DNA from: Escherichia phage vB_EcoA_fTuEco01
Strand: one strand, 5' to 3'
Sequence record: MZ031013.1
DNA: 44,320 bases
The translations under genes and the position numbers were made by a program. Below are positions 6,883-31,932 of the stretch, piece by piece (positions within the stretch are counted from its first letter, which is position 1; each line of letters begins with the position of its first letter). Below the pieces are notes generated by a model. It had not been told where the DNA came from. It made no database searches and saw only the letters and a program-made list of their open reading frames with translations.

Positions 6883-6898
6883 GTCTCACATGTGAGAC
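6883..6898. repeat. Conserved perfect palindrome GTCTCACATGTGAGAC, copy 1
   Basis: 16-bp perfect inverted repeat read from the sequence; it ends 2 nt before the promoter at 6901. Confidence 0.8.
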
Positions 6899-6900
6899 TT

Positions 6901-6921
6901 ATTTACCGGACACTATAGGAT
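6901..6921 (+). promoter_or_regulatory. Phage RNAP promoter (ATTTACCGGACACTATAGGAT)
   Basis: Match to the window consensus ATTTACyGGACACTATAGAAG (SP6-type). Confidence 0.75.
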
Positions 6922-6924
6922 AGC

Positions 6925-7065
6925 CGTCGGAGACGGGAAAGAAAGGGAAGATAAAGGATATAAAGGAAGTAATAGGTATTAAAGGTTATATAGGTTATCT
7001 AGGAATACCTAGGAATACCTATTACCTTCTTCCTTCCTCTTATTACCACTTAGAGGAAGGGCAGA
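6925..7065. other. Purine-rich / pyrimidine-rich AT-rich block with internal inverted repeat and tandem TAGGAATACC x2; candidate primary replication origin
   Basis: gggaaagaaagggaagataaaggatataaaggaagtaataggtatt ... aggaatacctaggaatacctattaccttcttccttcctcttattacc; the two halves are near reverse complements. The block is flanked by two phage promoters, as in the T7 primary origin downstream of gene 1. Confidence 0.45.
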
Positions 7066-7073
7066 CCTAGGTT

Positions 7074-7089
7074 GTCTCACATGTGAGAC
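7074..7089. repeat. Conserved palindrome GTCTCACATGTGAGAC, copy 2
   Basis: Perfect 16-bp palindrome, 5 nt upstream of the promoter at 7095. Confidence 0.8.
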
Positions 7090-7094
7090 TTCGT

Positions 7095-7115
7095 ATTTAC
7101 CGGACAGTATAGATA
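7095..7115 (+). promoter_or_regulatory. Phage RNAP promoter variant (ATTTACCGGACAGTATAGATA)
   Basis: Consensus match with C to G at -7 and a deviant initiating region. Confidence 0.6.
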
Positions 7116-7142
7116 AGATTAACTCACTTTGGAGATTTAACC

Positions 7143-7271
7143 ATGCGTAACTTTGAGAAGATGGCCCGTAAAGCTAACCGTTTTGACATAGAAGAAGGGC
7201 AGAAGAAAGGCAAGAAGCTGAATAAGCCTGTCCGTGACCGTACATCTAAACGCGCAGCGTGGGAGTTCTAA
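7143..7271 (+). CDS. Hypothetical small basic protein, 42 aa
   Basis: ATG at 7143, basic composition (MRNFEKMARKANRF...). Under 60 aa, so not in the track. Confidence 0.4.
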   Translation: MRNFEKMARKANRFDIEEGQKKGKKLNKPVRDRTSKRAAWEF

Positions 7272-7274
7272 GTT

Positions 7275-9263
7275 ATGGCTATTATTCAGAATGTACCGTG
7301 TCCTGCTTGCCAAAAGAACGGACATGATATTACTGGCAATCATTTAATGATCTTTGACGACGGGGCAGGATACTGTAACCGTGGTCACTTCCATGATAAC
7401 GGTAAACCTTATTACCACAAGCCAGGGGGTGGCATCGAGATAACCGAATTGCCTATTACTGGCAATATCAAATATACACCTTCTCAATTCAAAGAAATGG
7501 AGAAGGAAGGGAAGGTAAGCGACCCTAAGTTGCGCGCCATCGCACTTGGTGGTATGCGTATGAAAGACCGTTGGGAGGTTATGAATGAGCAAGAAAGGGC
7601 AGACCAAGAAGCAGAGTGGAAACTTGATGTTGAATGGTTCCTCACGCTTAAGCGTAAGAATCTTGTTTCCCGACACATTCGCGGCGACATTTGCGCATTG
7701 TATGATGTACGTGTCGGACACGATGAAGATGGTAGAGTCTCACGGCATTACTATCCACGCTTCGAGAAAGGTGAGCTAGTAGGCGCTAAGTGTCGCACAT
7801 TACCTAAAGACTTTAAGTTTGGTCATTTAGGTAAACTCTTTGGTATGCAAGATCTTTTCGGTATGAATACTTTGTCTCACGTGTTAGACAAGGGAAGACG
7901 AAAGGATTGCTTGCTTATTGTAGGTGGTGAACTTGATGCACTAGCAGCACAGCAAATGCTCCTTGATTCTGCCAAGGGTACTAAGTGGGAAGGCCAGCCT
8001 TACCATGTATGGTCTGTCAATAAAGGTGAGTCTTGCCTTGAAGAGATAGTACAGAACCGTGAACACATCGCCCAATTTAAGAAGATTATATGGGGTTTTG
8101 ATGGCGACGAGGTGGGGCAGAAGCAGAATCAGCAAGCGGCTCGCCTGTTTCCTGGCAAATCCTATATCCTTGAATACCCTTCTGGTTGCAAAGATGCTAA
8201 CAAGGCATTGATGGCTGGCAAGGCTAAAGAGTTTGTTGATGCTTGGTTTAATGCCAAGTCATCTGATGAAGTCTTTGGTAGCCAGATTAAATCTATCGCA
8301 TCTCAAAGGGATAAGCTCAAGGCTGCACGTCCAGAGCAAGGACTATCATGGCCTTGGCCTAAGCTGAACAAGGTAACGCTAGGTATTCGTAAGAACCAGC
8401 TTATCATTGTAGGTGCAGGTTCTGGTGTAGGTAAGACTGAGTTCCTCCGCGAAGTGGTTAAACATCTCATTGAAGAGCACGGTGAATCTGTAGGCATCAT
8501 TTCTACAGAAGACCCGATGGTCAAGGTGTCCCGTGCTTTTATCGGTAAGTGGATTGATAAGCGCATTGAGTTACCGCCAACCAATGACCCGAAAGAAGAC
8601 GGATACCGTGAGGTGTTCGACTACACCGAGGAAGAAGCTAACGCTGCCATTGATTATGTGGCTGATACAGGAAAGCTATTTGTGGCTGACCTAGAAGGCG
8701 ACTATTCTATGGAGAAGGTAGAGCAAACTTGCCTAGAGTTTGAGGCTATGGGCATTTCTAATATCATCATTGATAACTTAACGGGGATTAAATTAGATGA
8801 GCGTGCTTTTGGTGGGAAGGTTGGTGCACTTGATGAATGCGTCAAACGAATTGGTACTATCAAAGACCGACATGCGGTTACGATTTTCCTTGTCTCTCAC
8901 CTTACACGTCCTCCGGCAAACCGTACCCAACACGAAGAAGGTGGCGAAGTTATCCTTTCTGACTTCCGAGGCTCAGGCGCTATCGGATTCTGGGCATCTT
9001 ACGCCTTGGGGATTGAGCGTAATACAAGAGCTGAAACGCTTGATGAAAGGACTACCACGTACATCTCGTGTGTCAAAGACCGCGATCAAGGTATCTACAC
9101 TGGAACCAAGGTCATGCTTAAGGGTGACATTCAAACCGGACGTTTAATGGAACCACAAGCTAGAACAAGGTCATTTGATACAGGTGAAACAAGGCAGCAA
9201 GAGGTGCCTGATTTACCGGACACTATAGAAGAGACAACCTTTGACGATGAACAGGAGTTTTAA
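7275..9263 (+). CDS. DNA primase/helicase (T7 gene 4-like), 662 aa
   Basis: N-terminal zinc ribbon CPACQ...CNRGH; Walker A GAGSGVGKTEF; acidic C-terminus DDEQEF ending in Phe, as in T7 gp4 (...TDF). Confidence 0.95.
   Translation: MAIIQNVPCPACQKNGHDITGNHLMIFDDGAGYCNRGHFHDNGKPYYHKPGGGIEITELPITGNIKYTPSQFKEMEKEGKVSDPKLRAIALGGMRMKDRWEVMNEQERADQEAEWKLDVEWFLTLKRKNLVSRHIRGDICALYDVRVGHDEDGRVSRHYYPRFEKGELVGAKCRTLPKDFKFGHLGKLFGMQDLFGMNTLSHVLDKGRRKDCLLIVGGELDALAAQQMLLDSAKGTKWEGQPYHVWSVNKGESCLEEIVQNREHIAQFKKIIWGFDGDEVGQKQNQQAARLFPGKSYILEYPSGCKDANKALMAGKAKEFVDAWFNAKSSDEVFGSQIKSIASQRDKLKAARPEQGLSWPWPKLNKVTLGIRKNQLIIVGAGSGVGKTEFLREVVKHLIEEHGESVGIISTEDPMVKVSRAFIGKWIDKRIELPPTNDPKEDGYREVFDYTEEEANAAIDYVADTGKLFVADLEGDYSMEKVEQTCLEFEAMGISNIIIDNLTGIKLDERAFGGKVGALDECVKRIGTIKDRHAVTIFLVSHLTRPPANRTQHEEGGEVILSDFRGSGAIGFWASYALGIERNTRAETLDERTTTYISCVKDRDQGIYTGTKVMLKGDIQTGRLMEPQARTRSFDTGETRQQEVPDLPDTIEETTFDDEQEF
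9211..9231 (+). promoter_or_regulatory. Phage RNAP promoter embedded in the 3' end of the primase/helicase gene
   Basis: ATTTACCGGACACTATAGAAG is a perfect consensus; in frame it encodes LPDTIEE. Confidence 0.7.
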
Positions 9264-9424
9264 TGGAAATTATTAAACCAGTATTGAATATCGGTATTGA
9301 AATCCTATTCATGCTTGTGATCGCAGATTATGCTGCACGATATGGATTCAAGAAAGCTGTGAAACTTATCGTTGCATCTGGTTTTATGATGTCAATGTTC
9401 TTTATTGTAACACGCCTTATCTAG
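9263..9424 (+). CDS. Hypothetical small membrane protein, 53 aa, two hydrophobic segments
   Basis: TAATG stop-start overlap with the helicase gene; ILFMLVIADYA and SGFMMSMFFIV hydrophobic stretches. Confidence 0.45.
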   Translation: MEIIKPVLNIGIEILFMLVIADYAARYGFKKAVKLIVASGFMMSMFFIVTRLI

Positions 9425-9437
9425 TGTATTTATCAGG

Positions 9438-9461
9438 GCTTGTCTCACATGTGAGACAGGC
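9438..9461. repeat. Conserved palindrome (gcttGTCTCACATGTGAGACaggc), copy 3, extended stem followed by a T-rich run
   Basis: Core 9442..9457 is perfect; the flanks extend the stem to about 10 bp; followed by TCTTATT. Terminator-like. Confidence 0.7.
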
Positions 9462-9496
9462 TCTTATTAAGTACATTAAATAACTGGAGATTGATT

Positions 9497-10180
9497 ATGT
9501 ATAAATTAGTATTGAATGCAGGTGATTATGTTCGTAACATCAATGCAACCTCACGTAGATATCGTTGCCGTGGTACTGTGACTAATGTAAGTGAAAACAG
9601 CTACTATGTAGAGTACAGTAATGGTATTAGACAGGCTTATCAAAAGGAATCAGCACATAACTACCTTGAGAAGATTGGAGAGGTAAGCAATCAATGTAAG
9701 TGCGTACACGATGAGATTTGCGATAAGTGTGCCCGCCAGATGCATAAAATGCTATTATACCCTCTTCGCTATGGTGCTGGCATTCAAACCTTAGCAGAGG
9801 CATATGGCAAAGGTAAGACTACACTTAATAAAGATCGCCGCAATGTAATCACTGGTAAGACTCAAAGTGAAATGATTAAGCAGTGTGGCACTGCACTAGG
9901 TGTTACGCAGTTTAACACTCGTGCTCTTGGTAAATCCACAGGACAAGCTATGGTAAAGATTGGCGAAGCCATGATGCATCCAAATGTACCTGTGCGAATC
10001 ATGGATGTTGACCATGCAATCACAGAACACGGTACACCACGACGTGTAGCTAATAAGCATTTTGCCGACACTATAGAAGGTGTTATCCGTAAGCAAGGGT
10101 TGAAAGGTCTTCACCTCTTGAATGGTGAAGAATTACTGTATCTCCCTATTGTTACTGAAGAAACCTACGTGAATATTTAA
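9497..10180 (+). CDS. Hypothetical protein, 227 aa, Cys-cluster (CKCVHDEICDKC), possible zinc-binding / DNA-binding
   Basis: ATG at 9497 with GGAGA upstream (the track starts at a TTG at 9491). An embedded promoter-like core lies at 10058..10079. Confidence 0.55.
   Translation: MYKLVLNAGDYVRNINATSRRYRCRGTVTNVSENSYYVEYSNGIRQAYQKESAHNYLEKIGEVSNQCKCVHDEICDKCARQMHKMLLYPLRYGAGIQTLAEAYGKGKTTLNKDRRNVITGKTQSEMIKQCGTALGVTQFNTRALGKSTGQAMVKIGEAMMHPNVPVRIMDVDHAITEHGTPRRVANKHFADTIEGVIRKQGLKGLHLLNGEELLYLPIVTEETYVNI
10058..10079 (+). promoter_or_regulatory. Weak phage-type promoter embedded in coding sequence (TTTTGCCGACACTATAGAAGG)
   Basis: Core CGACACTATAGAAG is conserved, the upstream AT-rich recognition region is degenerate; in frame it encodes ADTIEG. 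Confidence 0.35.
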
Positions 10181-10190
10181 GGAGTTAATC

Positions 10191-10406
10191 GTGACTAAAG
10201 TTCTAATTTATAAACAACGAGGTCTTAAGGCTTATGCTATTGTAGCACCAAATGGTGTTAAAAAAGTAAGTTGTAAGCCTCTTGCAATAAAAGGTGCAGG
10301 TATGTCTGCTAACTTCCAATTGCAACTTTTTGGCAATTTCACAGAAGCGCAATTCCGCAATAAACATGAAGTTATTGGTTCTTTTATGGTGAAACATGCA
10401 GAATAA
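10191..10406 (+). CDS. Hypothetical protein, 71 aa
   Basis: GTG start 7 nt after an AAGGAG RBS. Confidence 0.5.
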   Translation: MTKVLIYKQRGLKAYAIVAPNGVKKVSCKPLAIKGAGMSANFQLQLFGNFTEAQFRNKHEVIGSFMVKHAE

Positions 10407-10605
10407 ACACAGCCTTAAGATGTTTGATGGTCACGAAGACCTGCAAGCACACATCACTAACCAAGCCTTCCTGTTTGCACAGTTAACTATGGCTGAAGCA
10501 AAGAAGAATAGCCTGACACGCGAGCAGGTTATCAAGGAGGCTACTTGGGAGCCACACCAAGGTAAATATATGGGCCATAAATTAACTGTAACACGCAGTC
10601 GATAA
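10396..10605 (+). CDS. Hypothetical protein, 69 aa
   Basis: ORF track entry; overlaps the upstream gene by 11 nt. Confidence 0.45.
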   Translation: MQNKHSLKMFDGHEDLQAHITNQAFLFAQLTMAEAKKNSLTREQVIKEATWEPHQGKYMGHKLTVTRSR

Positions 10606-10611
10606 GTCAAG

Positions 10612-10635
10612 GGTTGTCTCACACGTGAGACAGCC
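10612..10635. repeat. Conserved palindrome variant (ggttGTCTCACACGTGAGACagcc), copy 4
   Basis: Stem arms gtctca and tgagac are conserved, with a CACG centre variant. Confidence 0.65.
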
Positions 10636-10662
10636 TTTCATCATGTTGATTGGAGGTGCATT

Positions 10663-10770
10663 ATGCCACGTGATTATGATTCTGATTGGGACTACTATGA
10701 CTCAATGAATCCAAAACCCGAACGTTCAGATGATTACTACGAAACAGAGGCAATGTATGAAGATTACTGA
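10663..10770 (+). CDS. Hypothetical small acidic protein, 35 aa (MPRDYDSDWDYYDSM...)
   Basis: ATG at 10663 with a GGAGGTG RBS. Under 60 aa. Confidence 0.35.
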   Translation: MPRDYDSDWDYYDSMNPKPERSDDYYETEAMYEDY

Positions 10771-13303: not shown

Positions 13304-13420
13304 TGGACAGGTTTGATATTGTTTGCCTATTCTCCACCTTCTTTCTTATATTCCTTATGCTTGCTTGCTATGGAAGTATGCGATTAGATATACCTGATGA
13401 AGAGGAGGGTTACGATTGAT
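13304..13420 (+). CDS. Hypothetical hydrophobic peptide, 38 aa
   Basis: TGATG overlap with the polymerase stop; FSTFFLIFLMLACY transmembrane-like segment. Confidence 0.3.
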
Positions 13421-13517
13421 GCAGGCATCTTTTATTATTCTTGGAGTCATATTATTTATGGTAGTATTCTGGGCTTTCTCTGGCATTGACCCAGATTGTG
13501 ATGGTAACTACGACTGA
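13419..13517 (+). CDS. Hypothetical hydrophobic peptide, 32 aa
   Basis: TGATG overlap with the previous ORF; IILGVILFMVVFWAF transmembrane-like segment. Confidence 0.3.
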   Translation: MQASFIILGVILFMVVFWAFSGIDPDCDGNYD

Positions 13518-13585
13518 GTTATACTCAAGGTCACTTACGAGTGGCCTTTATGAATAACTTATTCCTACTTATTTTGTCTAACATG

Positions 13586-13606
13586 ATTTACTGGACACTA
13601 TAGAAG
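13586..13606 (+). promoter_or_regulatory. Phage RNAP promoter (ATTTACTGGACACTATAGAAG)
   Basis: Perfect consensus. Confidence 0.8.
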
Positions 13607-13607
13607 G

Positions 13608-13672
13608 AAAGCCTAGGTAATCTAGGTTTATAAGGTAGTATAGGTAATTAAGTAAATATAGGAGATATAAAT
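13608..13672. repeat. AT-rich TAGGTWA-repeat block downstream of a promoter
   Basis: gcctaggtaatctaggtttataaggtagtataggtaattaagtaaatataggagat; similar blocks occur at 6961..7020 and 38650..38702. Confidence 0.5.
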
Positions 13673-14050
13673 ATGTCTATGGTAACTACTCTGGTATTCG
13701 TGGCTCAATACTTTCGTGGTCTTGCTAATAAGTTCAAGTCCAAGGCTATCAAAGCTATTGAGGCTCGCATCGAAGCAGTACAGGCAGAGCAAGTTAAAGT
13801 TGAAGAACATCGTAGTTCTCAAATGATTGACTGTCATAACCGCTACTATGCATCTCGTGATGAACTAAATGCACGTCAAGTCAAAGAGGTAGAAGATATG
13901 CTGGCACGTCACCAGCAAGAGCGTGACAGCCTGAAAGCTGAATTTGAAGAGAACAAGGCATCAATTGCCCTTGTAAATCAAGCTGCATCTGACAGCCTGA
14001 AGAAAGAGATTGTTATGCTGGAAATAGAACTGGACAACTTGACTAAATAA
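13673..14050 (+). CDS. Hypothetical coiled-coil protein, 125 aa
   Basis: Strong T7 gene-10-like RBS (ataggagatataaatATG); heptad-like charged sequence. Confidence 0.6.
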   Translation: MSMVTTLVFVAQYFRGLANKFKSKAIKAIEARIEAVQAEQVKVEEHRSSQMIDCHNRYYASRDELNARQVKEVEDMLARHQQERDSLKAEFEENKASIALVNQAASDSLKKEIVMLEIELDNLTK

Positions 14051-14056
14051 GGAGTT

Positions 14057-14356
14057 ATGATGGAAGAAGTGATTCAAGCTAAACATGTAGGTATCATCTT
14101 TCGTGATCTAGAGCAGCGTAAAGTTGCAGGTCACACTCGTCTGGCTAAAGAAGACGATACAGCAATCACTACTGTGGAACAAGCAGATGCCTATCGTGGT
14201 CCAGAGTTTACTCAAGGTGAAACTTGTCATCAATTGAGCCTTTCGCTTTGTGACACTATGGCTAGTGTAAATGTACAAGAGGTTGAAGATGGTGAATGTG
14301 TTAGTTATGTCTACCCTCTCGATACTATTGCACGTATTAAGGTAGTTCATAAGTAA
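14057..14356 (+). CDS. Hypothetical protein, about 98-99 aa
   Basis: AAGGAG RBS; ATG at 14057 or 14060. Confidence 0.55.
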   Translation: MMEEVIQAKHVGIIFRDLEQRKVAGHTRLAKEDDTAITTVEQADAYRGPEFTQGETCHQLSLSLCDTMASVNVQEVEDGECVSYVYPLDTIARIKVVHK

Positions 14357-14375
14357 TTACTGGACACTATAGAAC
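14355..14375 (+). promoter_or_regulatory. Phage RNAP promoter (AATTACTGGACACTATAGAAC)
   Basis: Consensus match; overlaps the stop codon of the upstream ORF. Confidence 0.7.
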
Positions 14376-14433
14376 AATAGGTCGGCTTAGTTCGGCCTAT
14401 GATTGTGTAGTGTAACAATAGGAGACTAAATAA

Positions 14434-15240
14434 ATGGCACGTGGTGATTTTGATTTTGGTGCTCAGGTTACTAAAGCTGAAGGTAAAGTATTTAAGAACC
14501 CTGAAGTTGGTGATCATGAAGCAGTAATCTCTGGCATCATTCATGTTGGTTCCTTCCAAGATATCTTTAAGAAAGGTAATACCACTGAAGTTAAGAAGCC
14601 AGCAAACTTTGTTCTTGTTAAAATTACCCTGATGGGCGACGATGACAAGAATGAAGATGATTCTCGCATGGAACAGTGGATGGCTGTGCCCTTGAAGTCT
14701 GGTGACAAGGCAACTCTTACTAAGTTCCTGAATGCAGTGGACCCTAAAGAATTGCTGGGTGGCTTCGATGATTTCATCGGTGAATGTCTGACTGCAACTA
14801 TGGTTGGCTCTGGTGATAAGAATGACGATGGCTCATTCAAGTATGTTAACTGGAAAGGATTTGGTGGTATGCCTGACAAGCTGAAGAAACTGGTCATTGC
14901 TCAGGTAGAAGAGGAAGGTCTGTCTATGACAGGTCATATCACCTTCGACAAGCTGACCAAAGAAATCCTTGATGACATCCCAGCTAACTTGGTACGTCAA
15001 TACTTCCTGAACGAGACACCTCGTGGTAAGAACCTGTCTGTTGCTGGCTCTCACGTAGAAGCTATTATCAAAGCTGCTCGTGAAGAAGACCCTGAATGGA
15101 AGAAGGCTAAGAAGAAAGACGAGGAAGATGCTACCCCAGCTAATCGTAAATCTCTGGATACTGGTGAGCCTGTTCCACAGGAAGTACCTGAAGCAGAAGA
15201 TACTCCTGCACCGGAGATGGATGAGGACGCGGAATATTAA
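14434..15240 (+). CDS. Putative ssDNA-binding protein (T7 gp2.5-like role), 268 aa, acidic C-terminal tail ending in Tyr
   Basis: Highly expressed codon usage and a C-terminal acidic tail ...EMDEDAEY resembling the T7 gp2.5 tail (...DEDGDF), in the replication module. Functional assignment is by analogy only. Confidence 0.4.
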   Translation: MARGDFDFGAQVTKAEGKVFKNPEVGDHEAVISGIIHVGSFQDIFKKGNTTEVKKPANFVLVKITLMGDDDKNEDDSRMEQWMAVPLKSGDKATLTKFLNAVDPKELLGGFDDFIGECLTATMVGSGDKNDDGSFKYVNWKGFGGMPDKLKKLVIAQVEEEGLSMTGHITFDKLTKEILDDIPANLVRQYFLNETPRGKNLSVAGSHVEAIIKAAREEDPEWKKAKKKDEEDATPANRKSLDTGEPVPQEVPEAEDTPAPEMDEDAEY

Positions 15241-15249
15241 GGAGAACGG

Positions 15250-15468
15250 ATGAAAGTACAAATCGTAACTCTGCATTGCAAGAAAGGAATCACCACACTT
15301 GGCGGCAATACTTTTCACTCCTTCTCTGAAGGGGAGACATACGCCGACCTTCACTATATCTGGCGTGACGGGCAGCACGTGGTGAACTACAGCGACCCTG
15401 CGACTGGTAAACGCCACGGCGTGTCGCTTCCGGCGCATGACATTGCTCAGGTGAACACAGTTTTATAA
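15250..15468 (+). CDS. Hypothetical protein, 72 aa
   Basis: ORF track entry with a GGAGAACGG RBS. Confidence 0.5.
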   Translation: MKVQIVTLHCKKGITTLGGNTFHSFSEGETYADLHYIWRDGQHVVNYSDPATGKRHGVSLPAHDIAQVNTVL

Positions 15469-15469
15469 A

Positions 15470-15485
15470 GTCTCACGTGTGAGAC
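15470..15485. repeat. Conserved palindrome variant GTCTCACGTGTGAGAC, copy 5
   Basis: Arms are conserved with a CGTG centre; 15 nt upstream of the promoter at 15501. Confidence 0.7.
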
Positions 15486-15500
15486 AAATCGGTGTCCGGT

Positions 15501-15523
15501 ATTTACTGGACACTATAGAAGAG
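15501..15523 (+). promoter_or_regulatory. Phage RNAP promoter (ATTTACTGGACACTATAGAAGAG)
   Basis: Perfect consensus. Confidence 0.8.
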
Positions 15524-15573
15524 AAGAATTTTAATCGGCGATAATGCCATAACCAACAAAAGGAGAATTTAAT

Positions 15574-15945
15574 ATGTTCAAGATTGAAACTATCGTAAAC
15601 CGTGTTGTTAAAGGTGCTACTCTGGTATCCGTTGAGTCTTTCATTATCGTCGATGAAGCTGATCAACTGGTAGCTGGTACTAAGGCTTACGATACCCGTG
15701 AAGAAGCTCAGGCTAAGATTGACAGCATGGGTAACTTCGCTGCTGGTCTGGAGTTTGCTCGTGCTTGCTTCCCTGAGCAGGCTGACAAAGCCCAGATCGG
15801 TAAGGCTAACATCGTAGCTGAATATCTGGATTGGATTGCTGCTGGTAAACCAGTGAAAGAAGTTAAAGCTGCTGAAGAAGCTGAAGCTCCGGCAGTAGAA
15901 GTGTCTGCACCGGAAGCTCCGGTTAGCGAAGAGGAAGAGTTTTGA
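15574..15945 (+). CDS. Hypothetical abundant protein, 123 aa, acidic C-terminal tail ending in Phe (...SEEEEF)
   Basis: AAGGAG RBS, codon usage typical of highly expressed genes, and a strong terminator downstream. Tail resembles the replisome-docking tails of T7 gp2.5 and gp4. Confidence 0.55.
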   Translation: MFKIETIVNRVVKGATLVSVESFIIVDEADQLVAGTKAYDTREEAQAKIDSMGNFAAGLEFARACFPEQADKAQIGKANIVAEYLDWIAAGKPVKEVKAAEEAEAPAVEVSAPEAPVSEEEEF

Positions 15946-16003
15946 TAATAGCAGGTGTAGCCTCTGTTAGTCCTAGTTGACTATCACGCTCACCTCATCT
16001 AAT

Positions 16004-16037: not shown

Positions 16038-16062
16038 CGTAATAGTTATTGGAGAATGAATT

Positions 16063-21050: not shown

Positions 21051-21059
21051 GGAGATCAC

Positions 21060-21269: not shown

Positions 21270-21270
21270 T

Positions 21271-23741: not shown

Positions 23742-23747
23742 TTAAGT

Positions 23748-23768
23748 ATTTACTGGACACTATAGAAG
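23748..23768 (+). promoter_or_regulatory. Phage RNAP promoter upstream of the major capsid gene
   Basis: ATTTACTGGACACTATAGAAG, perfect consensus. Confidence 0.85.
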
Positions 23769-23812
23769 GGAGAAACACCTCCCTAAATTATCAATTTGAT
23801 TTATAAGGAGAT
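23768..23812 (+). promoter_or_regulatory. Capsid mRNA leader: 5' stem-loop GGGAG-aaacac-CTCCC (23768..23783) plus strong SD TAAGGAGAT
   Basis: Hairpin begins at the transcript 5' end, followed by an AT-rich spacer and AAGGAG 10 nt before the ATG. Same architecture as the T7 gene 10 leader. Confidence 0.6.
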
Positions 23813-23820
23813 CATAATAC

Positions 23821-25032: not shown

Positions 25033-25040
25033 TACCTATG

Positions 25041-25075
25041 CCCTATCTACCTTGCGTAGGTAGGGTTCTTTTTGT
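25041..25075 (+). terminator. Rho-independent terminator after the capsid gene (T-phi analogue)
   Basis: ccctatctac-cttgc-gtaggtaggg forms a 10-bp stem followed by TTCTTTTT. Confidence 0.75.
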
Positions 25076-25086
25076 TAGGAGGATTC

Positions 25087-25824
25087 ATGCCTGTAATTAG
25101 ACAAACCAGTAAAGTAGGACATATGATGGAAGATGTGGCCTTCCAGATTATTGATAGTAAGCTGGAAGCGGTAAACTTGTGTATGCGAGCTATTGGTCGT
25201 GAGGGTGTGGATTCTCTCGACTCAGGTGACTTGGACGCAGAAGACGCAAGCAAGATGATTGACATCGTATCCCAGCGGTTTCAGTACAACAAAGGAGGTG
25301 GCTGGTGGTTCAATCGTGAACCAAACTGGCAGATTGCACCTGATACCAATGGTGAAGTCAATCTGCCTAACAACTGCCTAGCAGTATTGCAGTGTTATGC
25401 TTTAGGTGAGAAGAAAGTACCCATGACTATGCGAGCAGGTAAGCTCTACTCTACATGGAGTCATACCTTTGATATGCGTAAGCATGTGAATGCTAATGGT
25501 ATGATTCGTCTTACCTTACTCACCTTACTTCCATATGAGCATCTACCTACTAGTGTAATGCAGGCTATTGCCTATCAAGCTGCTGTAGAGTTTATTGTGT
25601 CTAAGGATGCAGATCAGACTAAGCTAGCCACTGCACAGCAGATTGCCACTCAACTTCTTATGGATGTGCAATCCGAACAAATGTCACAAAAGCGACTGAA
25701 TATGCTTGTGCATAACCCTACGCAGCGTCAGTTCGGCATTATGGCGGGTGGTTCTCAGAATGTACCTGCTTACTCTCATTCACCATATGATAGTTGGGCA
25801 CTTCGTCCGTGGGAGGATCGTTAA
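25087..25824 (+). CDS. Tail tubular protein A (T7 gene 11-like), 245 aa
   Basis: AGGAGG RBS 4 nt before ATG 25087; synteny capsid - tubular A - tubular B. Confidence 0.75.
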   Translation: MPVIRQTSKVGHMMEDVAFQIIDSKLEAVNLCMRAIGREGVDSLDSGDLDAEDASKMIDIVSQRFQYNKGGGWWFNREPNWQIAPDTNGEVNLPNNCLAVLQCYALGEKKVPMTMRAGKLYSTWSHTFDMRKHVNANGMIRLTLLTLLPYEHLPTSVMQAIAYQAAVEFIVSKDADQTKLATAQQIATQLLMDVQSEQMSQKRLNMLVHNPTQRQFGIMAGGSQNVPAYSHSPYDSWALRPWEDR

Positions 25825-28226
25825 TGGAAGTACAAGGTTCATTAGGGAGGCAAATCCAAGGGATTAGCCAGCAACCTCCAGCGGTACGTCTTGATGGTCA
25901 ATGTACGACTATGGTGAACATGGTCCCTGATGTAGTGAATGGGACTCAATCCCGCATGGGTACAACTCACATTGCTAAGCTCTTGGATGAAGGTACAGAT
26001 AATATGGCAACGCACCATTATCGCAGGGGTGAGGGGGATGAAGAGTATTTCTTCACCTTAAAGAAAGGGCAAGTGCCAGAGATATTTGATAAGCATGGAC
26101 GCAAGTGCAATGTCATCTCTCAAGATGCACCTATGACCTACCTTTCTGAAGTTGTTAACCCTAGGGAAGATGTGCAATTCATGACTATAGCTGATGTTAC
26201 TTTTATGCTTAACCGTAGGAAAGTGGTTAAAGTTAGTAATAGGAAGTCACCTAAAGTTGGAGATAAAGCCATTGTGTTTTGTGCATATGGTCAATACGGT
26301 ACATCTTATTCTATCATAATTAATGGAACTACAGCTGCTAGTTTTAAAACACCAGATGGGGGAAGTGCAGAACATGTTGAACAAATACGAACGGAACGTA
26401 TCACTTCTGAATTGTACTCCAAGTTGCAGCAATGGAGTGGTGTGAATGACTATGAAATACAAAGAGATGGTACGAGCATATTTATAGAGAGACGCGATGG
26501 TAAAAGTTTCACAGTAACAACTACCGATGGTGCAAAAGGTAAGGACTTAGTGGCTATCAAGAATAAAGTTAGCTCTACTGACCTACTCCCTTCTCGTGCG
26601 CCTGCTGGTTATAAAGTACAAGTGTGGCCTACTGGCAGCAAACCTGAGTCTCGTTACTGGCTGCAAGCTGAGCCTAAAGAGGGAAACCTTGTGTCTTGGA
26701 AAGAAACAATAGCTGCTGATGTATTACTTGGGTTTGATAAAGGCACAATGCCTTACATTATTGAACGTACAGGTATTATTGACGGTATAGCTCAATTCAA
26801 GTTAAGACAAGGTGATTGGGAAGATCGTAAAGTAGGGGACGACTTGACTAACCCTATGCCCTCTTTTATTGATGAGGAAGTGCCCCAGACAATAGGTGGG
26901 ATGTTCATGGTACAGAACCGTCTATGCTTTACAGCAGGCGAAGCGGTTATTGCTTCTCGTACATCATACTTCTTCGATTTCTTTCGTTATACGGTTATCT
27001 CTGCACTGGCAACTGACCCATTTGATATTTTCTCAGATGCGAGTGAAGTTTATCAATTGAAACACGCAGTAACCTTAGATGGCGCTACCGTGTTATTCTC
27101 TGATAAGTCACAATTCATTTTGCCAGGAGATAAACCGCTAGAGAAATCCAACGCCTTACTCAAGCCTGTCACAACATTTGAAGTTAACAATAAAGTGAAG
27201 CCAGTGGTAACTGGTGAATCGGTAATGTTTGCCACTAATGATGGTTCTTACTCTGGTGTACGAGAGTTCTATACAGACTCTTATAGTGACACTAAGAAGG
27301 CACAAGCAATCACAAGTCATGTGAATAAACTCATCGAAGGTAACATTATCAACATGGCAGCAAGTACCAATGTCAACCGATTGCTTGTCACTACTGATAA
27401 GTATCGTAACATAATTTATTGCTATGATTGGTTATGGCAAGGTACAGACCGTGTACAATCAGCATGGCATGTATGGGAGTGGCCTATGGGTACAAAGGTG
27501 CGAGGTATGTTTTATTCTGGTGAATTACTTTATCTACTCCTTGAGCGAGGCGATGGCGTCTATCTGGAGAAGATGGACATGGGTGATGCACTAACCTATG
27601 GTTTGAATGACCGCATCAGAATGGATAGGCAAGCAGAGTTGATCTTCAAGCATTTTAAAGCAGAAGATGAATGGATATCTGAACCACTTCCTTGGACTCC
27701 TACTAACCCAGAACTTTTGGATTGCATCTTAATAGAAGGGTGGGATTCATATATTGGAGGTTCTTTCCTGTTCAAATATAACCCTAGTGATAACACCTTG
27801 TCTACAACCTTTGACATGCATGATGATAACCACGTAAAAGCGAAGGTTATTGTTGGTCAGATTTACCCTCAAGAGTTTGAACCTACACCTGTAGTTATCA
27901 GAGATAGGCAAGATCGTGTATCCTATATTGATGTACCTGTTGTGGGGTTGGTTCACCTTAATCTTGATATGTATCCTGATTTCTCTGTGGAAGTTAAGAA
28001 TGTGAAGAGTGGTAAAGTACGCAGGGTGCTAGCGTCAAACCGTATAGGTGGTGCTCTCAACAACACAGTAGGTTATGTTGAACCAAGGGAGGGTGTCTTC
28101 AGATTCCCACTGAGGGCTAAGAGTACGGATGCTGTTTATCGTATTATTGTAGAATCACCTCATACATTCCAGCTTCGCGATATTGAGTGGGAAGGGAGCT
28201 ACAATCCAACCAAAAGGAGGGTCTAA
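25824..28226 (+). CDS. Tail tubular protein B (T7 gene 12-like), 800 aa
   Basis: TAATG overlap with the upstream gene and GGGAGG RBS; size matches T7 gp12 (794 aa). Confidence 0.75.
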   Translation: MEVQGSLGRQIQGISQQPPAVRLDGQCTTMVNMVPDVVNGTQSRMGTTHIAKLLDEGTDNMATHHYRRGEGDEEYFFTLKKGQVPEIFDKHGRKCNVISQDAPMTYLSEVVNPREDVQFMTIADVTFMLNRRKVVKVSNRKSPKVGDKAIVFCAYGQYGTSYSIIINGTTAASFKTPDGGSAEHVEQIRTERITSELYSKLQQWSGVNDYEIQRDGTSIFIERRDGKSFTVTTTDGAKGKDLVAIKNKVSSTDLLPSRAPAGYKVQVWPTGSKPESRYWLQAEPKEGNLVSWKETIAADVLLGFDKGTMPYIIERTGIIDGIAQFKLRQGDWEDRKVGDDLTNPMPSFIDEEVPQTIGGMFMVQNRLCFTAGEAVIASRTSYFFDFFRYTVISALATDPFDIFSDASEVYQLKHAVTLDGATVLFSDKSQFILPGDKPLEKSNALLKPVTTFEVNNKVKPVVTGESVMFATNDGSYSGVREFYTDSYSDTKKAQAITSHVNKLIEGNIINMAASTNVNRLLVTTDKYRNIIYCYDWLWQGTDRVQSAWHVWEWPMGTKVRGMFYSGELLYLLLERGDGVYLEKMDMGDALTYGLNDRIRMDRQAELIFKHFKAEDEWISEPLPWTPTNPELLDCILIEGWDSYIGGSFLFKYNPSDNTLSTTFDMHDDNHVKAKVIVGQIYPQEFEPTPVVIRDRQDRVSYIDVPVVGLVHLNLDMYPDFSVEVKNVKSGKVRRVLASNRIGGALNNTVGYVEPREGVFRFPLRAKSTDAVYRIIVESPHTFQLRDIEWEGSYNPTKRRV

Positions 28227-28948
28227 TGGCTATAGGTTCAGCCGTTATGGCTGGTATGTCTTCTATTGGTAGCATGTTTGCAGGCAGTGGTGCAGCAGCC
28301 GCTGCTGGAGGTGCTGCCGCAGGTGGCGGAGGTTTGCTAGGTTCACTAGGTGGATTCCTAAGTGGCTCTACTGCTGGTTTCTCTAATGCTGGCCTTCTTG
28401 GTGCTGGCCTTCAAGGGTTAGGCTTGATTGGTGATCTATTTGGTGGAAGTGATGAAGCCAAGGCGATGAAGAAAGCACAAGAAGAGCAATGGCGGCAGCA
28501 GCTTATTGCTACACAAGAGGCGTACAAGACAGTGGCAGACGCAGAACGTTCTGCTGCTAAACAATATCATGCAGATGCAATCAGTAATCAGGCTTCACTG
28601 CTACAGCAGCGAGCACAGGTTGCATTACTTGCTGGGGCTACTGGTACTGGTGGTAATTCTGTGTCCTCTATGCTTAATGACTTAGCAGCAGATGGCGGCA
28701 GGAACCAGAGTACCATCATTGATAACTATGAGAATCAGAAGATTAATTTCACCAACCAACTTAAGTCTATCCAACGTGGTGGTCAGATGCAGATGCGTGA
28801 GTTTAAGAAGCCTTCTGCTATGAGTACCTTGGTTCAAGGTATTCCAAGTCTGGCATCTGCCTATGTAACTGGTAGTAAGTCTGGCAAGGCATTGGGTAAA
28901 GCCTTAACTGATTCTCGTACATATTCATCTGGAACAAGAGGTATTTAA
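28226..28948 (+). CDS. Internal virion protein with Gly-rich hydrophobic N-terminus (T7 gp14-like), 240 aa
   Basis: TAATG overlap; N-terminal AGMSSIGSMFAGSGAAAAAGGAAAGGGGLLGSLGGFLSG is membrane-inserting-like; position in the internal-core gene block. Confidence 0.65.
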   Translation: MAIGSAVMAGMSSIGSMFAGSGAAAAAGGAAAGGGGLLGSLGGFLSGSTAGFSNAGLLGAGLQGLGLIGDLFGGSDEAKAMKKAQEEQWRQQLIATQEAYKTVADAERSAAKQYHADAISNQASLLQQRAQVALLAGATGTGGNSVSSMLNDLAADGGRNQSTIIDNYENQKINFTNQLKSIQRGGQMQMREFKKPSAMSTLVQGIPSLASAYVTGSKSGKALGKALTDSRTYSSGTRGI

Positions 28949-31896
28949 TGGCAATTGAGCGACAAGCAGTACAAGGTCTGCCACAAGTGCAGGCCACTTC
29001 TCCTAATGTCATGACCTTTGCACCTCAACAAGTGGGAGGTGTGGAGGCTGGCGTGGCTTCTACCTCCGGTAGTAGGTTTATCGAAGACCTTATTCGTGCA
29101 GCAAGCAGCGTGGCTGATGTTACCACTGGTATCCTTAATCAGAAGATTGAGGAAGATAAGGTTGTTCAAATGGAACGGGCATATAACGGATTAATGCCTT
29201 CTGAGGATGCAACTCGTGGTGGCGCTCGTGCTAACATGCTTGTCAAAGCTCAACTGCTAGCTAATGATGAAGCAGCACGAATGAAAGACATGGCTACTCG
29301 TTTCCAAGGAACGGATGACGAATGGACACAACTTATGGTTGACTCTCGTAATGAGATGCAGAATAAGCTGTTCCGGCAATACCCTGAGTTGCAAGGTGAC
29401 AAAGATACTATGCGTATGGTCACTAATGTCTTCCAAGAACAGCAGCCTCAGATTTGGGCTACACGAACCCAGCATAAACTTGACCGTGAACAAGCCGACC
29501 GTGAGGATACCTTTGACGGGCGAGTGGCTTCTACTTGGGACTCTAATATTGACCATGAAGCCTCTGGCTATGCTTTACAGGAACGAATCCGCGAAGGTCT
29601 GACTCAAGGATTACTACCTGAACAGATGCACAAGAAGTTAGTCCAGCGGGCAATTTCACTTGCACAAGGTGGTGATGTTAGCATGGCTGAAGCCCTGAAG
29701 TATGTGAAGGACGATAAGGGCGTTTCTGTTTATGCTAAGAATCCACAGCTTATCACAGCCATCACTAGTGGTAATGCAGTTTGGGCTAGGAATAATGTAG
29801 CTGATGTAACTCGTATGTCTTTCGAAGTTAAAGAATCATACCTTGCAGGTGATTTAACTGATGAAGAATTGTTGGAACGAGCACAGCACATTAATAATCT
29901 GACAGGTAACTCTGTCTTCTCTAATCCAGAACTAGAGGCACTGATGCGCCAACGGGCTAAGCAGAATGCAGAGCTAGGTGCAATGCAGGATATGCGACGT
30001 GAGCTTTACTCCGACCGCCTGACTGGCTTCCAAGGTAAGACTGATAAAGAGAAGAAGGCTTACATTGATGTTATCAAACAGGATAGCCAACTTTATGCAG
30101 ACCAGCAAATCAAACAACGTGGCTTGGACCCTTACAGTCAAGAGGCTGAAGCTATTCGTGGTGCAGTGGAAGTGCAGCGCCTGCAATTCATGAACTCCAA
30201 AGGTTTAGTGGATGATACCTTTGAATCTCGTATCAAGGCTATGGAATCCATGCTATCACCTGAGCACTTTGCTAAAGGTGAACCACAGGAGTTAATGACC
30301 ATTCGTCAGTTGTGGGAGCAGTTACCTGAAGAAAGTCGAGGTGTCTTCGGTGACACTGTGAACGGTTATATGGATAACTACAATACTGCATTACAAATGG
30401 GAGAGACACCTTTGCAGGCTGCAAGGTTTGCCCGTGAAGCACAGCAGAAATTCTCTCGTACTGAGAAGGAAACCAAGAAGTTCAACTCCGCTATTGGAGA
30501 TGCACTGGATGAGGTATCTGGTGCTGGCTGGTTTGATGGTAAAACCGAGGTGTCAGACTTAGGTAAAGCTATTGCGGAAGAAGAGTTACGAGCTAAGGCC
30601 AATATGTTGTGGTCTAGCGGTATGCGTAACATGGATTCTATCAAGAAGGCTTTAATCACTTGGGGCAATAAACGCTACACTCAATCAGAGGATGCAAAGA
30701 CTTCCGGTGGCTATTTCATTAAAGGTGATTACACTTCTGCATCTGATATGCTTATGTCAGTTGGGAAAGGTGTAAACCCTACCGATGTCCCTCTGGCGCT
30801 TGGTAGGTATGTAGAAACACAGATGCCAGAATTGAAGAAGGAGCTTCAAGAGTGGGAAACTAAGGATGATGTGTACATTGATTACAATGAACAGAAAGGA
30901 ACTTTTGTGATTCGTGCTGGTGCAGCAGGTCGCCCTCTTTCTGGAGTAATCCCTGTAACTTCTTTGGATACCACTTCACTACTGGATTCTGCCTATCAGA
31001 AGAAAGTAGAAGAACGAGATAAAGGCGAGTATGTTCCTCCCTATCGTACAGATATCGGTGCACAAGAACCAATGCCAGCTAAGCCAACTGCCAAAGATAT
31101 TGGTAAATTAGGATTAGCTAACTTCCTCATGTCTTCTGCTTTTGCTTCTGGTGAGAATCTACCTTCTAACTTCGAGATTAACTATCGAGGCAATATGAAA
31201 CAATTCTATGACAAGCTAGCTATGGATGAGAATAAAGATAAAGTTGGCTTTAATAAGGCAACTGGAACCTTTACTCCATATAAAGACGCTCACGGTGAGT
31301 CTATCGGTTACGGTCATTTCTTAACGGAAGAAGAGAAGCGAGACGGGTATATTAAGATTGGCGATGAACTAGTTCCCTATCGAGGGTCTATGTCTCAGCT
31401 TACAGAGAGTAAGGCTCGCGCTCTTATGGAGCAAGATGCTAGGAAGCATGTGCCTCCTACTCGTGACTGGAAGATTCCGTTTGACCAGATGCATCCTGCA
31501 CAGCAACGTGGCTTGATGGATTTAACCTACAATTTAGGTAAAGGTGGAATCCAGAACTCACCGCGTGCTCTTGCTGCATTCAAAGCTGGTAAACTTACGG
31601 AAGGCTTTATCGAAATGCTGGGTACTGCATCAAGTGAAGGTAAACGTATTCCGGGCCTACTGAAGCGACGCGCTGAGGCATACAATATGGCAGCTGCTGG
31701 TGGTGTACCTAAGATCACAGAAGTGGAGACTAGGGAAGATGGCTCTATGTGGGTTAAGTTTGGTGGACCTATGCCAGCAGGCTCTGTTTCTGCGTGGACG
31801 CATAAACGTATTGGAGCCGATGGCTGGTATCAGGTTTATGAGGCTGCACCTACCAAGTTAGCTAAAGACTCTAAGGTAGGTAAAGTTAAATTGTAG
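28948..31896 (+). CDS. Internal virion protein with a C-terminal lysozyme-like (T4 lysozyme / GH24-type) domain, 982 aa
   Basis: The C-terminal region YKDAHGESIGYGHFL...QRGLMDLTYNLGKGG...GKRIPGLLKRRAEAY parallels T4 lysozyme blocks (YKDTEGYYTIGIGH..., ALINMVFQMGETG..., RAKRVITTF) as I recall them. Confidence 0.7.
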   Translation: MAIERQAVQGLPQVQATSPNVMTFAPQQVGGVEAGVASTSGSRFIEDLIRAASSVADVTTGILNQKIEEDKVVQMERAYNGLMPSEDATRGGARANMLVKAQLLANDEAARMKDMATRFQGTDDEWTQLMVDSRNEMQNKLFRQYPELQGDKDTMRMVTNVFQEQQPQIWATRTQHKLDREQADREDTFDGRVASTWDSNIDHEASGYALQERIREGLTQGLLPEQMHKKLVQRAISLAQGGDVSMAEALKYVKDDKGVSVYAKNPQLITAITSGNAVWARNNVADVTRMSFEVKESYLAGDLTDEELLERAQHINNLTGNSVFSNPELEALMRQRAKQNAELGAMQDMRRELYSDRLTGFQGKTDKEKKAYIDVIKQDSQLYADQQIKQRGLDPYSQEAEAIRGAVEVQRLQFMNSKGLVDDTFESRIKAMESMLSPEHFAKGEPQELMTIRQLWEQLPEESRGVFGDTVNGYMDNYNTALQMGETPLQAARFAREAQQKFSRTEKETKKFNSAIGDALDEVSGAGWFDGKTEVSDLGKAIAEEELRAKANMLWSSGMRNMDSIKKALITWGNKRYTQSEDAKTSGGYFIKGDYTSASDMLMSVGKGVNPTDVPLALGRYVETQMPELKKELQEWETKDDVYIDYNEQKGTFVIRAGAAGRPLSGVIPVTSLDTTSLLDSAYQKKVEERDKGEYVPPYRTDIGAQEPMPAKPTAKDIGKLGLANFLMSSAFASGENLPSNFEINYRGNMKQFYDKLAMDENKDKVGFNKATGTFTPYKDAHGESIGYGHFLTEEEKRDGYIKIGDELVPYRGSMSQLTESKARALMEQDARKHVPPTRDWKIPFDQMHPAQQRGLMDLTYNLGKGGIQNSPRALAAFKAGKLTEGFIEMLGTASSEGKRIPGLLKRRAEAYNMAAAGGVPKITEVETREDGSMWVKFGGPMPAGSVSAWTHKRIGADGWYQVYEAAPTKLAKDSKVGKVKL

Positions 31897-31910
31897 TACC
31901 TAACTCAAGG

Positions 31911-31932
31911 CTTGTCTCACATGTGAGACAGG
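31911..31932. repeat. Conserved palindrome (cttGTCTCACATGTGAGACagg), copy 6, followed by TCTTTA
   Basis: Perfect 16-bp core at 31914..31929, lying between two internal virion protein genes. Confidence 0.7.

Follow-up and report, generated by a model that had tools for sequence, protein, structure and literature searches.

The genome of Escherichia phage vB_EcoA_fTuEco01 (MZ031013.1; 44,320 nucleotides, analysed as one whole stretch and called the window below) contains a 16-bp palindrome that recurs at scattered positions, and it raises the question of what reads this shared sequence. The initial annotation had proposed either a dispersed family of RNase III-type or terminator hairpins or a binding site for a dimeric protein. 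Our comparison with related phages favours the second alternative for the shared 16-mer: it probably serves as operator for a DNA-binding protein of the phage itself, with the early protein gp6 as the best candidate. Protein and sites would form a network that is conserved, and co-evolves, throughout the SP6-like phages. The first alternative stands only as a second layer, at the three copies with extended stems, where RNA hairpins of the sense strand are conserved. The phage of the window belongs to the K1E-like members of Vectrevirus (Autographiviridae, Molineuxvirinae, SP6 group), and a test stretch of the window was 98–99% identical to K1E KY435490 and ULINTec4.

Copies of the palindrome in the window

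The palindrome GTCTCAC-NN-GTGAGAC (consensus GTCTCACNNGTGAGAC) occurs in six copies with perfect arms, and a sequence scan found all six exactly where the initial annotation had placed them. The central dinucleotide is AT at 6883, 7074, 9442 and 31914, AC at 10616, and GT at 15470. Written as duplexes, forms of the 16-mer include GTCTCACATGTGAGAC, the ancestral GTCTAACATGTTAGAC and GTCCAACATGTTGGAC. When one mismatch to GTCTCACNNGTGAGAC was allowed, the window gave 8 matches against a chance expectation of 0.02, and no shuffle out of 100 gave as many as 8. The first 35% of the genome holds seven of the eight copies (binomial p = 0.0035). Lone half-sites (n = 4) occur at about the chance level and are not enriched. 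The two additional copies are a degenerate one, previously placed at 589–604 and found here at 588–603 (GTCTCACATGTTAGAC), and a copy at 7874–7889 (GTCTCACGTGTTAGAC) within the primase/helicase open reading frame (ORF; 7275–9263). The description of the element as intergenic thus holds for the copies first listed and is false for the family.

Four of the eight sites are promoter-proximal (588, 6883, 7074 and 15470), one is intragenic and three are intercistronic. Site 1 (588–603) combines a left arm of the K1E type with a right arm of the ancestral type and lies 23 nt upstream of a sigma-70-like −35 element at 627 and 67 nt upstream of a TTGACA at 671. Sites 2 and 3 are perfect 16-mers that abut phage promoters on the plus strand: site 2 (6883–6898) precedes the promoter at 6901–6923 (ATTTACCGGACACTATAGGATAG) by 2 nt, and site 3 (7074–7089), located before gene 8, precedes that at 7095–7117 by 5 nt. 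Site 7 (15470–15485, GT centre) lies before gene 18 and 15 nt upstream of the plus-strand promoter at 15501–15523. These three gaps agree with those given initially, and the promoters concerned are the only three of the 11 phage promoters recognised in the window that the motif precedes. The T-rich sequence after 6883 and 7074 belongs to the adjacent promoter, as its AT-rich upstream border. The remaining sites form the apices of RNA hairpins: site 5 (9442–9457, perfect) between genes 9.5 and 10, site 6 (10616–10631, AC centre) between gene 11 and the next gene, and site 8 (31914–31929, perfect) between genes 35 and 36, which encode internal virion proteins.

We also observed an inverted repeat, GGTGTCCGGT / ACTGGACAC (15489–15514), that involves the promoter at 15501 and pairs the −14 to −5 region of this promoter with the spacer after site 7. 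The counterpart in cp4 (aaattcggtgtccgcgATTTAGGGGACAC) is similar, and that in SP6 (aaatctgtgtctcttATTTAGGGGACAC) pairs less well.

Concerted variation among related phages

The initial annotation had raised the question of whether SP6, K1E and K1-5 carry the element at syntenic positions, and they do. K1E, K1-5, SP6 and cp4 occupy the same eight positions, and ZK1, PM85 and Vibrio phage BD1 occupy most of them. The counterparts of site 1 start at 493 in SP6, 722 in cp4, 559 in K1-5, 205 in PM85, 635 in ZK1 and 392 in BD1; those of site 2 at 6093 (SP6) and 6084 (cp4); those of site 3 at 6264 (SP6) and 6246 (cp4); and those of site 7 at 14255 (SP6), 14307 (cp4), 15304 (PM85) and 15038 (BD1). 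The left-end site is found 8–31 nt before the first TTGACA in cp4 and in the loci L141, L154, L155, L162 and L163.

The sequence of the arms differs between lineages, and the copies within a genome share the difference. SP6 has the form GTCTAAC/GTCCAAC..GTTGGAC at all eight positions, and the Klebsiella phages cp4 and ZK1 have GTCCAAC-NN-GTTGGAC. Proteus phage PM85 has arms of the cp4/ZK1 type with a 3-nt centre at five of six sites, and BD1, the RNA polymerase (RNAP) of which is 52% identical, has GTCTAAC-NN-GTTAGAC at nine places in 26 kb. A scan for relatives of the primase added 42 loci with primase identities of 36–98%, and in every one of these a palindrome of its own, with the general form GTnnnAC-(2-4 nt)-GTnnnAC, recurs in 4–11 copies per 20 kb. 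The variants among the added loci include GTCTCAC as a 17-mer (Pseudomonas-phage-like), GTTTCAC, GTCTACA, GTAACAC, GTACTAG and GTTCGAG. Concerted, genome-specific variants were found in at least 50 genomes. Because all copies of a genome change in concert, these results indicate that a phage-encoded specificity determinant is required.

The centre and the arrangement of the half-sites vary as well. In 16-mers of the K1E, SP6 and BD1 types the centre is always purine-pyrimidine and is symmetric on duplex DNA; centres differ in other lineages, such as CC, GG and TT in L154. Hybrid sites occur in both strand orientations, as T.G in SP6 and as C.A in L148 and ZK1, and a left-arm/right-arm hybrid like that of the primase copy recurs at 588 of the window, 5754 of L153 and 3188 of L155. 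In L155, L162 and L163, half-sites are also found as direct repeats 21–23 bp apart upstream of promoters. These direct-repeat half-sites (GTCTCACAG or GTTTCACAG), at 13785–13830 of L155, at 9394–9440 and 16222–16270 of L162, and at 5910–5960 and 14153–14200 of L163, directly precede phage promoters; one of the half-sites falls within the loop that a further short inverted repeat encloses, such as CCACCTAGG...CCTAGGTGG.

Traces of earlier variants were observed in the K1E group. K1-5 (L002) retains a site of the cp4 type, GTCCAACGTGTTGGAC, at 9570 (the gene 11/12 position, with a different downstream gene) and an unconverted ancestral site, GTCTAACACGTTAGAC, at its left end (559), which shows mosaicism and incomplete conversion of sites after a change of specificity. 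In the window, a lone half-site of the ancestral type (GTCTAACATG, 13576–13585, plus strand) directly abuts the −17 edge of the promoter at 13586 and may be a decayed ninth site that was never converted to the K1E-type sequence.

Copies within coding sequences

The intragenic site 4 reads ttG TCT CAC GTG TTA GAC and encodes L S H V L D. The primase codons at this position are TCT AAC GTG TTA GAC in BD1, TCT AAC GTG TTG GAC in SP6, TCC AAC GTG TTG GAC in cp4 and ZK1, and TCT CAC GTG TTA GAC in the window and K1-5; in each of these genomes the synonymous positions match the motif variant. The C in the left arm of the window copy was gained through a substitution of Asn by His. The right arm cannot become GTGAGAC, because GTG TGA GAC creates a stop codon. 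The change of A5 to C cost the pairing with T12 and converted a perfect ancestral hairpin into one with a C.T mismatch in the middle of the stem. Since this change breaks the pairing, selection acts on the sequence of the half-site and not on hairpin pairing. The coding copies track the variant even at the cost of pairing and of the Asn-to-His substitution, which argues that the half-site is read by a phage-specific factor. The motif of PM85, a 17-mer, cannot be encoded at this position; the site is lost from the PM85 primase, where the peptide S-N-V has become T-A-F.

The RNAP gene provides a second case. The copies GTT TCA CGC TGT GAA AC in L162 and GTC TCA CGC TGT GAG AC in L163 follow the respective variants and encode the same peptide, VSRCET, and L153 has its motif at the same place in another reading frame. 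We observed this second intragenic site at one conserved position of the RNAP gene in L140 (4964), L141 (8364), L146 (4901), L153 (5754), L008 (5060), L162 (8120) and L163 (4636); its reading frame varies by lineage, so the peptide is either VSHVLD or VSRCET. The site is absent from the RNAP gene of the window, K1-5 and SP6. No flanking homology that would support gene conversion was found around the coding copies.

Candidate factor gp6

The proteins common to all motif-bearing genomes in the early and middle region are gp6, RNAP, the primase-helicase, DNA polymerase (DNAP), gp16, gp18, the exonuclease and a few others. Among these, gp6 (3233–4117, plus strand; 294 aa; phrog_4571) is "hypothetical" in every annotation. 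It comprises an N-terminal helical DNA-binding domain (residues ~1–125), an acidic, proline-rich linker, a predicted 44-residue coiled-coil helix and a small conserved C-terminal domain. The predicted recognition helix (residues 61–74, KAQCYKLMSVARVF; KAQCY-K66-LMSVARVF) is encoded at 3413–3454 on the plus strand, with the K66 codon at 3428–3430.

Residue 66 is the sole column of the gp6 alignment that cleanly separates the motif classes. It is Lys in all 12 genomes with ...CAC arms (K1E group, Era103-like, Pseudomonas-phage-like, L163 and L162), and in all 14 genomes with ...AAC arms it is Asn (cp4, ZK1, PM85, BD1 and relatives) or His (SP6). Where the arms of a lineage differ strongly, it is Arg or Glu. 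No comparable co-varying column was found in RNAP, primase, DNAP, gp16, gp18 or the exonuclease. As the K1E group is nested within the Asn/AAC clade on the primase tree, residue and base have switched together at least three times independently, including a reversal in the K1E group. The direction of the switches corresponds to the usual recognition preferences, in which Lys contacts guanine of a C:G pair and Asn contacts adenine.

The N-terminal domain of gp6 models as a helix-turn-helix (HTH) fold of the ParB/KorB/Noc type. The AlphaFold2 model of residues 1–130 had a pLDDT of 85, and a Foldseek search with it returned as top matches ParB, Spo0J, Noc DBD-NBS (TM 0.64/0.70) and KorB, all with non-significant E-values. 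Weak matches to DUF3102 were obtained for 4 of 14 gp6 homologues (best E 0.0019, short of any secure threshold). The predicted 44-residue helix suggests a dimer formed through a coiled coil, and a 16-bp palindrome in eight copies fits the 13–16 bp sites of ParB-type dimers.

The C-terminal domain (3935–4117 of the window) is the most conserved part of gp6 and has the pattern APMLPQFKSxCxYARLGLSxEEAxxKxxVxKAFRELVKLGYGxGHEA. It is reminiscent of J-domain helices I and II, except that GHE stands where a J-domain has HPD; a search gave no DnaJ profile match and no HPD motif, and the domain may perhaps bind a partner. An origin of the factor gene by horizontal transfer into the K1E group was considered and dropped, as no protein of the window is nearer to an Era103-like homologue than to that of cp4 or SP6.

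Two sets of IMG/VR contigs carry similar palindromes. In one family of prophage-like contigs (L056, L059, L080 and L085–L088), GTCTAACATGTTAGAC lies exactly between a TTGACA −35 and a TATAAT −10 element, with a half-site, GTCCAACAT, just upstream and a gp6-like protein 2–3 kb away (E 4e-7 to 3e-5 when compared with the gp6 profile). These contigs may hold a separate instance of this protein-operator family, one that works as a repressor of the classical kind. The unrelated contigs L025, L057, L058, L106 and L068/L073 have GTCTAAC-(CG/CA/TG/AG)-GTTAGAC at 3–6 per ~13 kb. Their centres are mostly pyrimidine-purine, unlike those of the SP6 group, and no likeness to window proteins and no gp6 relative was found within the stretches examined. 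Multi-copy palindromes of the GTCTAAC-CCGG type are likewise seen in unrelated viral contigs with no gp6 relative in those stretches.

Proposed mode of action

We propose that each HTH of gp6 would read one half-site, GTCTCAC(A), on duplex DNA. Lys66 would read the C:G pair at position 5 of the half-site, and the relatives with A:T at this position have Asn (or His) instead. The protein would act as a dimer in which the HTH domain is joined through a long flexible linker to the coiled coil, and such a flexible architecture could tolerate centres of 2, 3 or 4 bp as well as the direct-repeat half-sites of distant relatives. In the window gp6 would occupy eight conserved positions: one shortly before the first host-type early promoter, three 2–15 bp before promoters of the phage RNAP, one in the primase gene and three between genes. 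Its role might then be a global control of early and middle transcription, in which it modulates adjacent promoters, blocks read-through, or both. Global control of transcription is the most likely role because the layout resembles the dispersed KorB operators of IncP plasmids. The analysis itself shows that the sites are enriched and syntenic, that they vary by genome and are tracked by codons, that residue and base co-vary, that the folds are similar and that the RNA co-varies at three sites. Binding and dimerisation of gp6, the regulatory outcome, and the RNase III cleavage discussed below are what we infer from the sequences and models.

RNA hairpins at three sites

Three copies cap extended hairpins in the RNA of the plus strand, at 9422–9478 (site 5; dG -30 kcal/mol, z = -8.7), 10596–10652 (site 6; dG -26.7 kcal/mol, z = -4.2) and 31894–31950 (site 8; dG -26.1 kcal/mol, z = -4.3). 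They share a common architecture in which an internal loop separates an upper stem of 13 bp from a lower one of 9–11 bp, giving a consensus of 24 pairs, or about two helical turns. Among 23 orthologous or paralogous extended sites, 95.6% of the cells were paired, compared with 78% in shuffles (none of 500 reached the observed value) and 32–42% with slid partners, and compensatory changes were found at 13 of the 24 pairs. The flanking stems contain G.T on the sense strand at 38 sites and A.C at 2. This asymmetry of 38:2 indicates that the extended hairpins are RNA or plus-strand structures. From this analysis, they probably serve in RNase III-type processing or in stabilisation, as is the case in T7.

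The extended stems that the initial annotation described at 9442, 10616 and 31914 were recovered, and its "T-rich tails" turned out to be the 3′ side of the internal loop together with the lower stem. Since the T-rich stretch pairs in the lower stem, we rejected it as a terminator tail. The terminator reading was abandoned altogether, because no U-run follows the full hairpins and the genuine terminators of the group look different. One such terminator lies in the window at 6816–6839, and terminator t5 of SP6, CCCTATCTACCTTGCGTAGGTAGGGTTCTTTTGTTT (PMC11347151), is unlike the palindrome hairpins. A search of Rfam gave no family that matches the hairpins.

The other five copies gave fold z-scores against shuffles of +0.2 (site 2), +1.0 (site 3), -0.7 (site 7) and, for the remaining two, +1.8 and -2.4. 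The bare 16-mer forms a 6-bp stem of about -7 kcal/mol.

Weighing of alternative explanations

The strongest rival holds that all copies are RNA hairpins (RNase III sites, mRNA-stabilising hairpins or terminators) that share their sequence through common descent or through a hairpin-specific RNA-binding factor. The three capped hairpins, with their conserved sense-strand folding, compensatory changes and many G.U pairs, speak for it. A variable centre of 2–4 nt would fit easily in a loop, and the changes of the arms between lineages are compensatory. RNase III sites of T7 also share sequence and often adjoin promoters. We nevertheless consider this explanation unlikely, and the hairpin family first proposed fails as an account of the whole set. 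With its weak bare stem, the palindrome folds no better than shuffles at five of the eight copies; two conserved copies (588 and 7874) have the C.T mismatch in the middle of the stem; and the arm of the primase copy was changed at the cost of both pairing and an amino acid. Hybrids occur in both orientations (T.G in SP6; C.A in L148 and ZK1), lone half-sites in direct repeat cannot pair, and the left-end copy lies upstream of the first early promoter. The missing U-run after the full hairpins and the negative Rfam search count against it as well, and the covariation of gp6 residue 66 is left unexplained. An argument from G.U wobble for an RNA core, based on T4.G13 in six SP6 copies, was dropped in view of the opposite C4.A13 hybrids in L148, ZK1 and SP6 (493); the argument holds for the flanks of the three extended copies.

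A second rival takes the palindrome as a single-stranded DNA hairpin or cruciform that serves replication, as an origin or loading signal by active promoters, and that is read by a replisome protein (the primase-helicase, or the acidic-tailed gp16 or gp18). In its favour, the interval from the RNAP gene to the homologue of T7 gene 1.1 holds two tandem phage promoters flanked by sites 2 and 3. The order at 6816–7271 is RNAP gene, strong terminator (6816–6839), site 2, promoter, hairpin-rich spacer, site 3, promoter and gene 8, and gene 8 matches Pfam Phage_1_1 (the T7 gene 1.1 family) with an E-value of 3e-14. We take this order to mirror the phi1.1A / R1.1 / phi1.1B / gene 1.1 region that forms the primary replication origin of T7; sites 2 and 3 would thus presumably correspond to the layout of that origin (phi1.1A, phi1.1B), and site 1 to a phiOL-like position. 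Most sites lie within the region of DNA metabolism, and a palindrome presents the same sequence on both strands. Against this stand the lack of a motif-co-varying column in primase, DNAP, gp16 and gp18 and the mismatched hybrid sites, which speak against a need for pairing. In addition, Tseng et al. reportedly found in 2000 that the SP6 primase recognises 5′-GCA-3′, which is not in the motif. We therefore regard the second rival as improbable. The pairing of gp6 with its sites may have a replication role, because the arrangement of sites 2 and 3 matches that of the T7 primary origin.

Several other candidates were rejected. A primase recognition site was considered because the motif, like the T7 primase site, begins with GTC; its geometry does not fit, nor does the reported SP6 site (GCA). 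gp18 (15574–15945) lies behind site 7 and its promoter and has a weak match to the C-terminus of TraR (E 0.48), but it has no co-varying column; its acidic ...EEEEF tail suggests a partner of the replisome instead. A likeness to the R-box of integron attC sites (RYYYAAC...GTTRRRY) was judged coincidental, as the arms of other lineages do not fit.

Acidic tails with a terminal aromatic residue were observed in gp16 (14434–15240; ...MDEDAEY), gp18 (...VSEEEEF) and, as the family consensus ...EEQEF, at the 3′ end of the primase-helicase gene (7275–9263). Similar tails bind DNA polymerase in T7 gp2.5 and gp4. It is probable that gp16 is a single-stranded DNA-binding protein; gp18, a protein of 123 aa that is conserved throughout the clade, may be an accessory protein of the replisome that has gone unrecognised.

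The weakest rival, that no trans factor exists and the copies were homogenised by gene conversion or template switching or are relics of a selfish palindromic element or a nick- or restriction-type site, can draw on the three extended-stem sites as 40–60 bp paralogues able to recombine, on the tendency of asymmetric hybrids to one orientation within a genome and on nick-associated motifs known in other podoviruses (PMC11780129), but we find it highly improbable, because the syntenic positions from E. coli to Vibrio and Pseudomonas phages show that the copies are not mobile, the coding copies track the variant without flanking homology for conversion, the known nick motifs are asymmetric and one-stranded, and the K66/N66 covariation of gp6 would be a coincidence. 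The nick-site variant of this idea had been rejected in its own right: the motif of the window is palindromic, and the known motif, WACTRTGAC, from the phages tf and Rembedalsseter of another phage family, is asymmetric and found on one strand only (PMC11780129).

Several observations weigh against gp6 as a dimeric duplex-binding operator protein. The length of the centre varies within one genome (16- and 17-mers in PM85, L010, L162 and L154), a feature that is uncommon among dimers binding duplex DNA but that a hairpin would accommodate without difficulty. Conserved single-strand hairpins are formed by three copies, and a hairpin-level role for the core is possible. Six of seven hybrids in SP6 are T.G on the sense strand and thus compatible with wobble pairing, although those of L148 and ZK1 are opposite. 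The fold of gp6 comes from a shallow alignment (25 sequences, at least 74% identity), with two of five AlphaFold2 models confident; no match to Pfam ParBc, HTH_ParB or KorB was obtained, and searches of PDB sequences and profiles were empty. gp6 also has no N-terminal ParB/Srx CTPase (CTP-binding) domain, for which there is no room because the DNA-binding domain begins at about residue 10. Finally, we infer the regulatory function from position alone, and the spacing between site and promoter varies from 1 to 16 bp. With these points taken into account, the operator reading still appears to us the probable one.

Implications

A wider generalisation, to which we give somewhat less than an even chance, is that SP6-like phages from those of E. 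coli K1 to their Vibrio and Pseudomonas relatives all carry an unrecognised KorB-like master regulator or genome organiser. It would be an early protein with a ParB fold and no CTPase domain, with 8–11 operators per genome, whose specificity has been re-programmed repeatedly via one residue of the recognition helix (Lys for C:G, Asn for A:T), every operator following, including the copies in the RNAP and primase frames that dictate codons and even amino acids.

SP6 and K1E/K1-5 serve as model phages and in therapy, and the RNAP of SP6 is in standard laboratory use. If the proposal is correct, a previously unknown regulator and its complete set of binding sites would be identified in this well-known group. 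The phages would then offer an unusually clean natural experiment in the co-evolution of protein and DNA, with a rule of one residue and one base, at least three independent switches and intragenic operators that constrain protein sequence. It would follow that ParB-fold DNA-binding domains work without a CTPase clamp in strictly lytic phages. Should gp6 shut off early transcription by the host RNAP and tune the middle promoters, it would take the place of the T7-style regulators that this group lacks. The variants would also amount to a natural, portable series of potentially orthogonal operator-repressor pairs adjacent to SP6-type promoters, and so beside promoters of a phage RNAP, for use in synthetic biology. 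In the engineering of these genomes, the three probable RNA-processing sites should be kept in view.

Comparison with known systems

The records of SP6 and K1E/K1-5 phages that were inspected contain no annotation of the palindrome, and they list the gene 6 protein only as hypothetical. The motif and its variants were not found in the searchable literature, and no paper found there links Molineuxvirinae with ParB, KorB or palindromes; an earlier mention of the repeats in the original SP6 and K1-5 genome papers is possible.

For the three extended copies only, the closest likeness is to the RNase III sites of T7 (R0.3 to R18.5), which likewise lie between cistrons as imperfect sense-strand hairpins, span about 24 bp, contain an internal loop and share sequence among paralogues; one region further parallels R1.1 between two promoters downstream of the RNAP gene. 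The likeness is one of shape and position, with no sequence similarity seen, and the apex is here an invariant candidate operator that is absent in T7. The other five copies are too short for RNase III.

With regard to the protein, KfrA-type and DUF3102 proteins of plasmids and phages resemble gp6 in architecture, with a long coiled coil after a helical DNA-binding domain at the N-terminus. KfrA binds inverted repeats (PMC7783346). The DUF3102 matches of the gp6 homologues are insecure (best E 0.0019, as above), and DUF3102 itself has no known function.

Compared with chromosomal ParB-parS and Noc-NBS, the half-sites of the phages are 2–4 central bp further apart, and the sites are genome-wide rather than clustered at the origin. 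gp6 has neither a ParA partner nor a CTPase domain, and we attribute to it no role in spreading or segregation. The half-site GTTTCAC of L162 is identical to that of the chromosomal parS consensus, with 2–3 bp inserted at the dyad. In the linear plasmid-prophage N15, dispersed palindromic SopB centromere sites reportedly occur, some of them near promoters (Grigoriev and Lobocka, 2001; Ravin and Lane, 1999). N15 and the SP6-like phages are alike in having several palindromic sites for a ParB-family protein scattered over a phage genome; in the SP6-like phages this protein is a candidate. Unlike the strictly lytic SP6-like phages, N15 is a temperate phage that depends on partition, and it encodes SopB as a complete ParB whose partner is SopA.

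The nearest parallel is KorB and its OB operators in IncP-1 plasmids (RK2/RP4), where the sites have the same dispersed layout, some next to promoters and some distant or intragenic. In contrast to KorB, gp6 lacks the CTPase N-domain, a Pfam KorB/ParB match and a KorA-like partner, and it is a predicted dimer via a coiled coil that follows a long disordered linker. The replicon is here a strictly lytic phage that relies on a single-subunit RNAP of its own, the centre of the 16-bp operator is variable, and repression is presumed. A ParB-fold protein with dispersed palindromic operators is thus a known kind of system. What appears to be new is its occurrence in a strictly lytic phage of the T7 supergroup, with no CTPase domain, a flexible dimer, a one-residue specificity code and operators within reading frames.

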